Positions 23,097-53,740 of a stretch of DNA of 64,000 nucleotides are shown one piece after another. A program made the translations under genes and the position numbers. Position 1 is the first letter of the stretch. The number at the start of each line of letters is the position of its first letter. The notes under the pieces were generated by a model. The model saw only the letters and a program-made list of their open reading frames with translations, did no database searches and had not been told where the DNA came from. The stretch covers positions 1,184,001 to 1,248,000 of the forward strand of contig CAVSUE010000001.1 of the NCBI GenBank assembly GCA_963731265.1. Direction: 5' to 3'. This DNA is from an uncultured Verrucomicrobiae bacterium. GTDB taxonomy: Bacteria > Chlamydiota > Chlamydiia > Chlamydiales > Rhabdochlamydiaceae.

Positions 23097-23726
23097 TTAA
23101 CAAATAGTTGTATTGATGTAGATTTCTCCTTCTCCCCAAGGAAATTGTCCTGTGAATTGGTCGAGCACATGAAAGCGGGGGCTATACTCGCTTAAAGGGT
23201 AGCTCACGGTCACGATTTTTGTCCGCGAGGGCAGTTTTTCAAAAAGAGATGCCAGGGAAACGATCTCTTCATCCGCAAGGCATGTTCCATAAAGATAAAT
23301 GACGGTGGCCTTCGAATAATCGACAGAATGCATATCTTCGCAGAGAAAAGTGACATGTAAGGGTGGATCGGCATAGGCGACAACCGCATTTGCTGTGCGA
23401 ATAAAAAAGGGAACCCAATCTATGCCTCTGACTTGGCAATTGCAGAGTTGGCTTAGAAACAGCGCTCCTCTCCCTCTTCCACAGCCGATTTCGAACACAA
23501 GATCTTCCGAATGAATACGGCACGCCTCAGCAATGCGGGCAAAGAGGGGAATAGGTGTCTCGCCATAAACGGTTTGCCGTCGTCTACAAAGATGATAGGG
23601 ATTTTGGAAACGATACGCTCTTTTAAGCGCCCGGTCAAACGGAATAAAGGAAGGAAACCGGCGGCGCACCTGTTTTTCTTCTCGATAGAGGAACCATTTT
23701 ACCTTCAAGAAAAGCCAGACGTTCAT
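23097..23726 (-). CDS. class I SAM-dependent methyltransferase (DOT1-like motifs)
   Basis: VYGETP, EIGCGRG, GIDW, ATVIYLY; ATG 23726 lies at the end of a family B element. Confidence 0.8.
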   Translation of the reverse strand: MNVWLFLKVKWFLYREEKQVRRRFPSFIPFDRALKRAYRFQNPYHLCRRRQTVYGETPIPLFARIAEACRIHSEDLVFEIGCGRGRGALFLSQLCNCQVRGIDWVPFFIRTANAVVAYADPPLHVTFLCEDMHSVDYSKATVIYLYGTCLADEEIVSLASLFEKLPSRTKIVTVSYPLSEYSPRFHVLDQFTGQFPWGEGEIYINTTIC

Positions 23727-23837
23727 CCGTCCTCCGGCGGAAACCCGGCCCTTAAGGGCCGGGTATTTCAAAAACAATGTTGGGCCGAGTACGAAGCTCG
23801 GCCTCAACTTAATCCCAGGCCTTAAGGCCTGGGTTCA
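23722..23837 (-). mobile_element. multi-hairpin element, family B (116 bp)
   Basis: Near-identical to 47549..47664 and 53624..53740; bounded by TGAA at both ends. Confidence 0.92.
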
Positions 23838-51091: not shown

Positions 51092-53626
51092 ATGCCTGAA
51101 AAGAAAAAAAAATCGATTAAAGCCAAGACAAAAAAAGAACCCTACCGCGCGCAGGAAGGTTTTGTGAATTCGGACGCTGCGAAGCAAAGCAAAATCAAAC
51201 CGAAGCGTTCCGAACGAGCGAAACCATTGATGAAGAGCAAGGCTGCGAGTCAGGTTGACTCTCGCAGTGTAAAGCAGGTAGACCGCAGCGAACCTGGGAC
51301 AAAGAAGGAGCGATTTGGCAAAGCCGCAGCCAGTCCAAATTCACAAAACATGACTGAGCGCAGGATAAAAGTTCCAAAACTGCCTTCTAGAAAAGTGAAG
51401 GCAGACCCTAAAAAGGCCGTCCCACCTCCCCCCAAACCATCTTCCAAGCAACCCCTGCCCAAACTATCTTCCAAGCAAATGCGCCTTGCCGACAATCTGT
51501 CGAAATCCATTTTGCAATTCATGACGGGCAAACGGTACAAACCGATGAAAGAAGCGGAATTGCTGGAAAGGCTGCATCTTCCTCCACAGCTCTGGGACAC
51601 CTCTTCAAAAATTATTGGAGAGTTGATTGAATCGGGCGAGATCCAAGTCATTAAGAACTTGCTGACTCTGGAGCAGGAAAAAGAGGAGATCATCAGCGGA
51701 GTTGTTCGCATGCACGTTAAGGGGTTCGGCTTCGTCATTCCAGATAACCCAAGCCTAAGTCCACAGGATATCTTTATCCCGAAACATTTAACTGACAATG
51801 CCATCGATGGGGACCATGTAGAAGTCGCCTTGAATTTGGAAGCGACTTCCGATAAAGGTCCGGAAGGACGCATTGTCGCCGTCTTGAAGCGCGCCAGAAA
51901 ACATCTTGCGGGGACCATCCGTCAAGTCAATGCCAATGGCGACCTCATGGCCTATGTTCCAATTCTTGGCATGAACAGGCCGGTTATCGTCTCGGCACCG
52001 ACCGCCCATGTGGTTAACGTCGGTGATCGCGTGATTCTCAACGTCGTCGAATGGGGGACAGAAAGAGAACCCACGACAACCGAACTTTCCTACGTGATCG
52101 GCAATATCGCGGACGCATCTTGTGACATCACTGCGGCAATTGAGGAATTCGATTTGCGTTCCTCCTTTCCCAAAACGGTCGTTGCTCAAGCGAAAGCTTA
52201 CGGAAAAAAAGTGCCGGCTAAAGACCTTAAAAAACGGCTTAACCTCTCTAAAGAAGAATGTTTCACGATTGATCCAGACACGGCCAGGGATTTTGACGAT
52301 GCGGTTTCTCTGACCAAAGATAAAAAGGGACACTTCCATTTAGGTGTCCATATCGCTGACGTCGCCCATTACGTGAGTCCAGACAGCCCTTTGGACAAAG
52401 AGGCGGTGCAACGCGCTAATTCGACATATTTCCCTGGCTCTTGTATTCCAATGCTCCCTGAAGAGCTTTCCAATGAATTGTGCAGTCTAAAACCCGATGA
52501 AAATCGGCTTACCGTTTCCGTATTGATGGACTTTGACAAGAACGGCACCCTTTTAAAACAAGAAGTGGTCAGATCCTACATCAAGAGCAAAAAACGTTTT
52601 ACCTATTTTGAAGCTAAAGACGTCCTCGATGGTAAAATGAAAAGCCCACACCTTAAAACGCTGAAATTGATGGTTGAATTGTGCCAGCTACTTAAGAAAA
52701 AGAGGTATGAAAGGGGCAGTATCGATTTTGCCTTGCCCGAGATGGTTATCATCACCGATGAGAAAGGGCAGCCCCAAGGACTGAAAAAGATAGAGTACGA
52801 TATCACTCACCAGCTCGTCGAAGAGTTCATGTTGAAGGCCAACGAAACCGTCGCCCTGGAATTAAACAAGCGGGGAAAACGGCTCATTTACCGCGTTCAC
52901 GAAGTTCCCCAAGAAGAAAATTTTGAAGATTTTCTTCAATTTGCACGCACTTTGGGCTTAAAAGTCCCTGTCAAACCGACTTCCCAGGATTTGCAAGGCC
53001 TCTTCGAAGAAGCAAAAAAAGGCACGTTTTTCCAACAGCTTTCCGTGGCGTTCATCCGCAGCATGCGCCTTGCCCAATATTCACCTGAAAATGTCGGCCA
53101 CTTCGGCCTTGCGCTTGAACACTATTGCCATTTCACCAGCCCCATCCGCCGCTATAGTGATCTGATCATCGAACGGCTTTTGTTCAATGAAGAGCCCGAA
53201 GACATTGATCTCGTCAAGATTGCCCAGCATTGCTCTGATCAGGAAAGGGTGAGTTTCCGCGCTGAAATGAGCGTGAAAACCCTGAAAAAACTGCGTTTGC
53301 TGCATCGCTATTACGCAGAAGATCCCCAGCGAGAGTACAAAGCGGTTGTCACCAAAATCAAGGCTTTCGGCCTCTTCTTTGAGCTTCAAGAGCTCATGCT
53401 CGAAGGATTTCTCCACATTTCGGAACTCGAAGACGATTATTTCTGCTTCGACGAGGTGCGGAATGTTCTCTATGGAAGAAGTTCTGGAAAAACGCATAAG
53501 CTCGGCGAACCGATCAAAGTCCGCCTGGCGCGCATCGATCTCGTTCAGTTGGAAAGCAACTGGAGCTTGATCTCGGATATGCCGAGAAGATCCAAGCCCT
53601 CTTTCTTCAGATCCAAAAAGCGGTGA
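51092..53626 (+). CDS. rnr: ribonuclease R with N-terminal basic extension
   Basis: GFGFV, FTIDPDTARDFDDA, VHIADV, HFTSPIRRYSDL, C-terminal S1; exact start uncertain. Confidence 0.95.
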   Translation: MPEKKKKSIKAKTKKEPYRAQEGFVNSDAAKQSKIKPKRSERAKPLMKSKAASQVDSRSVKQVDRSEPGTKKERFGKAAASPNSQNMTERRIKVPKLPSRKVKADPKKAVPPPPKPSSKQPLPKLSSKQMRLADNLSKSILQFMTGKRYKPMKEAELLERLHLPPQLWDTSSKIIGELIESGEIQVIKNLLTLEQEKEEIISGVVRMHVKGFGFVIPDNPSLSPQDIFIPKHLTDNAIDGDHVEVALNLEATSDKGPEGRIVAVLKRARKHLAGTIRQVNANGDLMAYVPILGMNRPVIVSAPTAHVVNVGDRVILNVVEWGTEREPTTTELSYVIGNIADASCDITAAIEEFDLRSSFPKTVVAQAKAYGKKVPAKDLKKRLNLSKEECFTIDPDTARDFDDAVSLTKDKKGHFHLGVHIADVAHYVSPDSPLDKEAVQRANSTYFPGSCIPMLPEELSNELCSLKPDENRLTVSVLMDFDKNGTLLKQEVVRSYIKSKKRFTYFEAKDVLDGKMKSPHLKTLKLMVELCQLLKKKRYERGSIDFALPEMVIITDEKGQPQGLKKIEYDITHQLVEEFMLKANETVALELNKRGKRLIYRVHEVPQEENFEDFLQFARTLGLKVPVKPTSQDLQGLFEEAKKGTFFQQLSVAFIRSMRLAQYSPENVGHFGLALEHYCHFTSPIRRYSDLIIERLLFNEEPEDIDLVKIAQHCSDQERVSFRAEMSVKTLKKLRLLHRYYAEDPQREYKAVVTKIKAFGLFFELQELMLEGFLHISELEDDYFCFDEVRNVLYGRSSGKTHKLGEPIKVRLARIDLVQLESNWSLISDMPRRSKPSFFRSKKR
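51143..51367. mobile_element. 225-bp palindromic element (family I) lying in-frame within the 5' part of rnr
   Basis: Inverted arms taccgcgcgcaggaaggttttgtgaattcggacgctgcg / cgcagccagtccaaattcacaaaacatgactgagcgcaggata. Confidence 0.75.
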
Positions 53627-53740
53627 ACCCAGGCCTTAAGGCCTGGGATTAAGTTGGGGCCGAGCTTCGTACTCGGCCCAACATTGTTTTTGAAAATACC
53701 CGGCCCTTAAGGGCCCGGTTTCCGCCGGAGGACGGATGAA
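53624..53740 (+). mobile_element. multi-hairpin element, family B
   Basis: TGAA-cccaggccttaaggcctggg...gttggggccgagcttcgtactcggcccaac...cccggcccttaagggcccgg-tttccgccggaggacgga-TGAA; spans the rnr stop to the mpg start. Confidence 0.92.

Follow-up and report, generated by a model that had tools for sequence, protein, structure and literature searches.

A miniature IS200/IS605-type element carrying its own Shine–Dalgarno motif at ATGAA start codons in a Rhabdochlamydiaceae genome

The REP/BIME sequences (repetitive extragenic palindromes/bacterial interspersed mosaic elements) are single palindromes of ~20–40 nt found around a single-copy gene for a Y1 HUH enzyme, the REP-associated tyrosine transposase (RAYT), often between operon genes just past stop codons. 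In an IStron, an IS605-type insertion sequence (IS) is fused to a group I intron and the transcript is repaired by splicing. Here, we describe a three-hairpin element of 112–113 nt, three copies of which lie in a window of 64 000 nt (C1:1184001–1248000) of G000, the 2.34 Mb genome of an uncultured Rhabdochlamydiaceae bacterium (two contigs, C1 and C2; 45.8% G+C). IS605-family elements of Geobacillus stearothermophilus (ISGst) are described, in the accessible text of a preprint (PMC10055086), as having the adjacent motifs TTCAT and TTTAT and a transposon-encoded end motif TTCAC, as inserting downstream of the adjacent motif without duplication and excising without a scar, and as being accompanied by gene-less palindrome-associated transposable elements (PATEs). 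The repeat REP2 of Neisseria, which is listed together with Borrelia IR sequences, carries a ribosome-binding site (RBS) next to an ATG; it also brings a promoter and the ATG itself, has no terminal inverted repeats and, in the accessible part of that source (PMC3184786), is given no transposition mechanism.

The element resembles the Geobacillus PATEs, as far as these are set out in that text, in its subterminal hairpins, its lack of terminal inverted repeats and of coding capacity, its insertion without duplication downstream of a 5 nt motif (TTCAT/TTTAT), its TTCAC end motif and the presence of related tnpA/tnpB genes in the same genome. Unlike in those PATEs, the linker of its left end (LE) encodes on the opposite strand a Shine–Dalgarno (SD) motif that is properly spaced to an ATG in the target complement, and its copies are concentrated at start codons and at ATGA stop/start overlaps. 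With REP2, compared by description only, it shares the RBS next to an ATG; unlike REP2, it is a hairpin element without a promoter-like site, the ATG is native and a mobilization route is suggested. It also fails to match a REP2-like expression cassette, since an RBS is present but no σ70-like site, and the ATG belongs to the target. Like an IStron, it is an IS200/IS605-type element that neutralizes its own insertion into expressed sequence, but it does so by replacing the RBS and the stop codon, is only 113 nt long and contains no ribozyme; no group I intron family was matched (best Rfam E value of any kind 0.24). Like REP/BIME sequences, it is a GC-rich hairpin repeat associated with a Y1 HUH enzyme; it differs from them in its three-hairpin 113 nt unit, its defined 5 nt target and a Y1 gene that belongs to a multi-copy tnpA/tnpB element. 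Membership of the REP/RAYT class was rejected because the Y1 genes sit in a tnpB-bearing element, present twice in G000 and at least eight times in the relative G056, and because the sole repeat copy adjoining tnpA is an insertion that is absent from the second IS copy.

The combination is new: an ATG in the target complement, an SD in the LE linker, a target-mimicking right end (RE) that restores a stop codon and heavy occupation of operon junctions. The transposition mechanism would be that of known PATEs. A search of the literature outside subscription journals returned no description of an SD-bearing start-codon PATE, and the accessible text of a study of Rhabdochlamydiaceae genomics (PMC9723776) makes no mention of MITE, IS200, IS605, miniature or palindromic elements.

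Our preferred reading, which we consider highly probable, is that the repeat is a non-autonomous IS200/IS605 element (a MITE, or miniature inverted-repeat transposable element, of the PATE kind) that lands at ATGAA, repairs the damage by means of its own SD and stop codon, and has accumulated at starts by loss elsewhere. A Y1 HUH transposase (TnpA), supplied in trans, would paste the element 3′ of TTCAT without target duplication, the transposon top strand being antisense to the gene that it precedes. Because the complement of TTCAT is ATGAA, the landing point on the gene strand would lie between the RBS and the gene's own ATG-AAN start. The LE linker, which reads CCGGAGGACGG on the gene strand, would then substitute for the displaced RBS with an SD in which 4 nt separate GGAGG from the native ATG. 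The RE, which reads GTGAA on the gene strand and thus mimics the target, would leave the upstream gene of an ATGA overlap with an in-frame TGA, its last codon being altered at the third base only. Insertions at ATGAA sites inside genes would be lost, and copies would pile up at starts, chiefly at stop/start overlaps.

Similarity between the three copies extends over 23722–23838 (−), 47549–47665 (−) and 53624–53740 (+), with 95–100% mutual identity, and each copy shares its strand with the downstream gene; both points had been made in an earlier note prepared from the window sequence alone. In an alignment that included 22 nt of flank on each side, the likeness ran from GTGAA until directly past ATGAA. 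The terminal ATG opens the downstream open reading frame (ORF) in all three cases (209, 247 and 194 codons), as that note had claimed, but this ATG is native and not the element's.

Copy 3, for which the element proper (GTGAA...GGACGG, 113 nt) spans 53623–53735 (+) according to the empty and filled sites described below, holds within its GTGAA end the TGA stop (53624–53626) of an RNB-family (RNase R-like) gene (51092–53626, +). It is followed by the methylpurine-DNA glycosylase (MPG) gene (53736–54320, +; assigned from Pfam and from orthologue N-termini), the own ATGAA of which (53736–53740) is the target motif (reverse complement TTCAT). Between these points lie hairpin 1 (53628–53647, +; CCCAGGCC TTAA GGCCTGGG), which is the RE hairpin on the transposon top strand (the complement), a central hairpin (53653–53682, +) and hairpin 3 (53698–53719, +; CCCGGCCC TTAA GGGCCCGG), the LE hairpin on the top strand. 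The stem of the central hairpin varies between subfamilies with its pairing kept, and its CTTCG-type loop is constant. The SD motif GGAGGA occupies 53727–53732 (+), its GGAGG ending 4 nt before the ATG. Copy 1 (23727–23838, −; 112 nt) has in its GTGAA end the TGA stop (23835–23837) of a PFK-family gene (23835–25520, −) and is followed by a methyltransferase gene of 209 codons (23097–23726, −) that starts at the ATGAA behind it. The RNB-family and PFK-family genes are thus the two cases in which the first TGA serves as the upstream stop. Copy 2 (47554–47665, −; 112 nt) has the SD variant AGAGGA; the upstream ORF (47672–48406, −) terminates 6 nt ahead of it, and a 247-codon ORF without a Pfam family (46810–47553, −) starts at the ATGAA behind it.

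The predicted hairpins fold as three (RNA, −62.3 kcal mol−1, z = −3.25; DNA complementary strand, −33.6, z = −4.59). Each end has a perfect 20 nt palindrome close to it, and the two ends do not form an inverted repeat. Occlusion of the SD in a small hairpin, also proposed earlier, appears in many minimum-energy folds; it is only partial, the mean unpaired probability being 0.43 over 25 start-associated copies. In all copies the GTG (or ATG) of the element also opens a conserved nine-codon frame, MNPGLKAWD, which crosses the first hairpin to a TAA (for example, 53623–53652). After insertion this GTG stands behind the native RBS, where the start used to be, and the frame may be translated as an upstream ORF.

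Six pairs of empty and filled sites, each at an ATGAA gene start, were found in the source genome and its relatives, principally G003 (~92% identical in DNA); empty sites in relatives had been predicted. In all six the insertion lies 3′ of a fixed pentanucleotide (TTCAT on the top strand), and in no pair were target bases duplicated. Firstly, the element sits on the tnpA start of one IS copy of G000, and the other IS copy reads GGCCT ATGAA AAAGTC unbroken. Secondly, copy 1 of the window is missing from G003 (contig C144), which reads GCTAGA ATGAA CTTCTGG, with a 6 nt indel just upstream. Thirdly, contig C137 of G003 is filled (AAAGTC GTGAA...GGACGG ATGAA ACCGCG) and G000 (C1:541.5 kb) is empty (AAAGTC ATGAA ACCGCG). 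Fourthly, C1:361507 is occupied in G000 and empty in contig C129 of G003. Fifthly, G000 reads GGCCC GTGAA...GGACAG ATGAA GG at C1:679420 and contig C172 of G003 reads GGCCC ATGAA GC. In the sixth pair, the orthologue in G002 of the gene at 55017–55676 has a truncated element directly before ATGAAAAAATAC; the window site (55017–55021, +) is an empty ATGAA stop/start overlap at which the gene 54355–55020 ends and the gene 55017–55676 begins. This insertion polymorphism between G000 and G003 marks recent mobility in the lineage.

Where a filled site of the GTGAA type has an empty counterpart, the empty allele is ATGAA in three of three cases and the G of the element is missing there. The RNB gene ends with CGATGA in G003 and with CGGTGA in G000, so that the insertion altered its last codon from CGA to CGG only. 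A tandem dimer (C2:65345–65571) has the junction GGACGG|GTGAACC, which fits GTGAA being part of the element. It follows that the element is GTGAA...GGACGG, 112–113 nt long, and that the trailing ATGAA is the pre-existing target. The limits given in the earlier note shift accordingly: the terminal ATGAA is outside the element and the G before TGAA is within it. Its claim that removal of the element restores GTG starts and GTGA overlaps is contradicted by the same alleles, and no conversion of GTG to ATG took place, the native starts being ATG and the ancestral overlaps ATGA. The orthologous RNB/MPG junctions of five species at 66–73% protein identity were too diverged to reveal an empty site, and the MPG gene is wholly missing from G003. 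Two genes with a hairpin element at their start, MPG (53623–54320) and a phosphoesterase-family gene (C1:676850–678323), are present in G000 and gone as a block from G003; the ends of these block indels do not match the element ends.

The repeat occurs far above chance expectation. BLAST found 41 full-length copies and ten partial pieces on both contigs of G000, and a fuzzy search found 46 right ends and 42 left ends. The left 5-mer of the full copies is GTGAA in 31, ATGAA in nine and CTGAA in one; at the right end, 36 of the 41 have ATGAA. A partial copy without the GTGAA-side hairpin (63965–64000, +) passes the window end (to C1:1248055), with two open codons behind its ATGAA. A 117 nt query matched ten of 18 other genomes of the genus, two of six genomes from other genera of the family and none of 16 genomes from other families of the order. 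Among the matches listed for the exact 22 nt core were metagenome-assembled genomes with the titles Rhabdochlamydiaceae, Candidatus Rhabdochlamydia, Chlamydiae, Simkaniaceae and 'uncultured Verrucomicrobiae'. The relatives G013 and G024 are among those rich in copies. Base changes in the central stems of the subfamilies are compensatory, since the stems still pair, and there is hardly any variation in the two outer hairpins or the right-hand module. Eighty loci of 12 other assemblies provided 83 right ends; ATGAA is the right 5-mer at 47 of them, and 28 of these open at least 100 codons, compared with a background of 19% of all ATGAA sites in G000.

Occupancy was calculated after the copies had been removed in silico, with genes taken from a home-made codon-usage caller (1864 genes, 87% coding), all sites classed and occupied sites counted as ATGAA. 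The 42 unique sites comprise 15 stop/start overlaps (a called TGA stop together with an ATG opening at least 100 codons), 13 that are starts only (11 of them long ORFs, the others a called gene of 62 codons and tnpA), two stops only and 12 that are neither. That the element sits at start junctions is accordingly right for 28 of 42 sites and not for the rest. Occupied sites make up 15 of ~72 ATGAA overlap junctions (21%), 18 of 290 ATGAA first-start sites (6.2%) and 11 of 931 intergenic ATGAA sites (1.2%). The odds ratios relative to intergenic sites are 21.6 for junctions (p = 8 × 10−12) and 5.1 for first starts (p = 2 × 10−5); when 350 true starts are generously assumed, the ratio for starts is 7.3 (p = 5 × 10−9). 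The element is thus strongly enriched at start codons over other sites with the same 5-mer; the earlier note had proposed a check for such enrichment against all GTGAA sites.

The genes behind the element are intact and conserved. An ORF of at least 100 codons is opened at 26 of the 42 unique sites, and Pfam families were found in 19 of the 24 long ORFs scanned outside the window. In seven proteins (FtsW/RodA, cytidylyltransferase, epimerase, Pyr_redox_2, SdhA-type FAD_binding_2, UbiE and MPG) the N-terminal domain begins within 12 residues of the ATG, so that there is no room for another start. For MPG, the Pfam match runs from residue 8 to profile position 2, and the N-terminus MKIVPLSFYQ aligns with those of orthologues such as MTLPSSFYQ. 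Since nothing but the element precedes these genes over 113 nt, the SD of the element is probably used for their translation. A divergent subfamily retains the SD-like GGGGGAGGG ahead of ATGAA, and the LE of the related IS has no SD. The element-borne SD and the self-compensating character of the insertion, both put forward in the earlier note, are borne out by the GGAGGA motif and by the in-frame TGA that the GTGAA end brings. Scanning of copy 3 and its flanks against Rfam gave no family match (best E value 0.24, far below the gathering score), the promoter scan of the element gave no σ70-like site and the terminator scan gave two weak terminator-like sites against 0.9 expected.

The Y1_Tnp family (PF01797) has two matches in G000, each within an element of two genes, the other being a divergent tnpB (383 and 435 codons); this is the IS605 layout. 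An alignment of these two copies gave the IS ends on the tnpB-sense strand: next to tnpA, TTTAT|CCACTAGACGCGAGAAAA-hairpin, and next to tnpB, hairpin-AGGTTCAA|. The motifs TTTAT|CCACTAGAC...hairpin and hairpin...GGAGGTTCAA| are constant in 14 IS copies from several genomes with differing flanks. The hairpin element, read on the strand antisense to the downstream gene, is TTCAT|CCGTCCTCCGGCGGAAA-hairpin ... hairpin-TTCAC|. The IS build, TTTAT|17–18 nt linker-hairpin ... hairpin-TTCAA|, matches that of the MITE, and the hairpin sequences differ. The element is a gene-less derivative of the IS200/IS605 type, as the earlier note had proposed, and the tnpA/tnpB element is its relative and a putative mobilizer. 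At one position 5′ of the LE hairpin the base changes together with the target, the MITE having GGAAA and TTCAT and the IS having GAAAA and TTTAT; this gives a hint, and only a hint, of guide/target pairing.

Several observations weigh against this reading as regards mobilization. A transposase gene flanked by ends identical to those of the MITE was sought in 59 relatives (40 at family level, 18 of the same genus and one in both sets) and none was found; the sole Y1 transposase family of G000 has ends of the same build with a different sequence. Both tnpA copies of G000 look damaged when compared with the family consensus (MKKS...HVHLL...YIE): one has HVQ for HVH, a frameshift after codon 5 and a MITE on its start codon, and the other has two compensating frameshifts. 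The tnpA of the G002 copy of this IS family is intact, with an open frame of 152 codons and HVHLL. Three relatives with at least 21 MITE matches each have no Y1_Tnp match in their assemblies, which are incomplete (one is 64% complete). The top strand of IS200/IS605 elements is preferentially found on the lagging-strand template. The orientation of 25 of 41 copies fits this rule (14 of 18 in one replichore and 11 of 23 in the other), a bias that is not significant and was set aside as a means of separating the two strand models. The GC skew flips sign near C2:190 kb and C1:1.06 Mb, because of which the two contigs look like one chromosome with its origin on C2 and its terminus ~130 kb ahead of the window.

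Other points weigh against the repair and loss parts of the reading. The enrichment rests on a crude gene caller. An SD core at −16 to −4 was found in only ~30% of called genes of G000 (8.7% of random positions), so that translation here may not need an SD; the spacing of the element SD, 4 nt, is at the short edge of the native range (GGAGG at 4, 5, 6 and 7 nt in 14, 15, 11 and 13 genes), and the SD is partly paired in the predicted folds. Target choice is not strict and many copies lie off starts, since in the assembly richest in copies, with 42 right ends examined, there is variation in the right 5-mer (ATCAA, ATAAA, ATTAA, ATGAC and others); it is non-ATG (ATCAA, ATAAA, ATTAA or ATCAC) at 14 of the 42, with three more unreadable by script, and the left RTGAA is invariant where read. 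Intergenic ATGAA sites, at which insertion should be harmless, are occupied five to 20 times less often than starts. Loss of within-gene insertions explains the lack of copies inside genes and not this intergenic deficit, and pure tolerance hardly explains the excess at starts because these presumably harmless sites are under-occupied. Longer retention at starts, which would leave older copies there, was rejected: start-associated and other copies are equally diverged (a median of four mismatches to the consensus in both classes, p = 0.44). As the cause of the excess we put selection at a little better than even and targeting at a low probability, domestication overlapping with both. The 5- to 20-fold excess bears on the question of targeting versus selection in the distributions of bacterial MITEs.

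A stronger version of the preferred reading can be entertained only tentatively. The element would be a mobile translation-initiation cassette that prefers ATGA overlaps (occupying about one in five of those of the ATGAA type), either through directed insertion or because uncoupling is advantageous when combined with an SD that is strong, structured and partly masked, so that dozens of housekeeping genes share one transposon-borne leader under purifying selection. If this were true, the genes sharing the leader would include sdhA-like, lpdA-like, ftsW/rodA, pyrF, truA, ubiE and mpg genes and others.

It is unlikely, in our estimation, that the enrichment arises at insertion, with the transposase or a single-stranded state of the target favouring translation-start junctions. 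The graded occupancy of overlap junctions, other starts and intergenic sites would follow naturally, the two copy classes are equally young, and the operon-internal junctions, which are expected to be the least tolerant, are the most occupied. However, the flanks of the 42 sites contain no conspicuous motif beyond ATGAA, except that true starts have their purine-rich native SD region, the 12 sites that are neither starts nor stops have no relation to a gene, and non-ATG 5-mers are frequent in the copy-richest assembly. To our knowledge, no preference for translation-start junctions is known in the IS200/IS605 family.

Of similarly low probability is domestication, in which the shared leader (three hairpins, the nine-codon GTG-to-TAA frame and the partly occluded SD) would exert common post-transcriptional control over dozens of genes, as has been proposed for Neisseria REP2, a precedent, in the accessible part of its source, for an RBS and ATG on a repeat (PMC3184786). 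At C2:261613, ahead of a glycosyltransferase gene, the orthologous copies of G000 and G003 agree at 112 of 112 positions, with 1 kb flanks that are 92.0 and 92.2% identical; in the 3.1 kb alignment, 65 of 3015 windows of 112 nt have zero differences, and every one of these covers the element or sequence close beside it. By comparison, at a copy of the intergenic class that both genomes have, a loss of 32 nt in G003 has taken away the right hairpin and SD, a module that is otherwise the least variable part of the element. With one pair each way, these alignments are suggestive, and no more, of constraint on the start-associated copy; the conserved pair is single and a recombination patch would look alike. 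The element moreover contains no promoter-like site, and the genes concerned have no evident common function. The public sequencing runs listed include no RNA run for the genome, and none of them matches more than 0.16 of the sampled sequence words.

That the main role of the element is to provide a guide (omega) RNA for the TnpB nuclease, the SD being incidental, is very improbable: PATEs often encode omega RNAs (accessible text of the preprint PMC10055086) and G000 has the two tnpB ORFs noted above, but the element is only 113 nt long, of which the LE uses ~40 nt, it has no Rfam match, and its RE half resembles the tnpB-side IS end only in its hairpin-plus-TTCA build. The model of the earlier note, in which the gene-strand target is GTGAA and an element reading CCC...GGACGGATGAA exchanges a weak GTG start and a GTGA overlap for its own ATG, gives an identical sequence after insertion and suits the G before the left TGAA in 31 of 41 copies, but it is already contradicted, and keeps the least probability of all, in view of the empty ATGAA alleles (three of three) and the G003 RNB end, the G at the tandem-dimer junction where it predicts A, the implied occupation of 12 of 41 GTGAA-start genes as against six of 278 ATGAA-start genes, the IS605 layout, in which tnpB lies on the opposite strand, so that this is the top strand, and the published TTCAT target and TTCAC end, which in the accessible text (PMC10055086) suit that opposite strand.

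On the preferred reading, that of a self-repairing IS200/IS605-type MITE, a derivative of a single-strand (HUH) transposon can make a start codon a safe landing site: its ends would rebuild what the insertion damages, the RBS downstream and the stop codon upstream, and the element could sit within operons and leave them unbroken. The compact genome of an obligate intracellular lineage would then provide a concrete example, open to testing, of how translational coupling can be rewired by a mobile element at many operon junctions at once. Annotation is affected too: where such an element is present, gene callers will put starts in the wrong place or extend them across it, and the left GTG is easily misread as a former start.

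Other repeats lie near the element. A second, unrelated family has a 184 nt unit with terminal inverted repeats of ~35 nt (TATACAGCTGACGCTTGAAAGTTATAGAAAATTTC...) and is present in the window at 35583–35990, 11373–11556, 19709–19846, 37011–37190 and 60243–60368, with two exact tandem units at 35583–35950 followed by a partial third; the hairpin-element copy at C1:583290 lies within a member of this family. A third family of ~170 nt, represented in the window at 50813–50988 (palindrome core 50860–50935) and with many copies in G002 and G003, combines terminal inverted repeats with a long palindrome in its interior. It splits two hairpin-element copies at the same internal position (C1:1280451–1281540); these split copies face each other, ahead of two 242-codon genes. 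Two stretches of ~100–230 nt, one at the 5′ end of the PFK-family ORF and one at that of the RNB-family ORF (25478–25580 and 51143–51369), have multiple matches elsewhere in G002 and G003, and other repeat families may also be located at gene 5′ ends. Two adjacent paralogous ORFs of 436 codons (279–1589 and 1658–2968) each contain six tandem repeats of 120 nt (40 residues), the unit being duplicated with a period of 1379 nt. Finally, stretches at 47353–47491 and 48146–48281, in the 247-codon ORF behind copy 2 and in the 244-codon ORF upstream of it, are 76–88% identical at equal spacing (~790 nt), and from this similarity the two ORFs, neither of which has a Pfam family, look like tandem paralogues.

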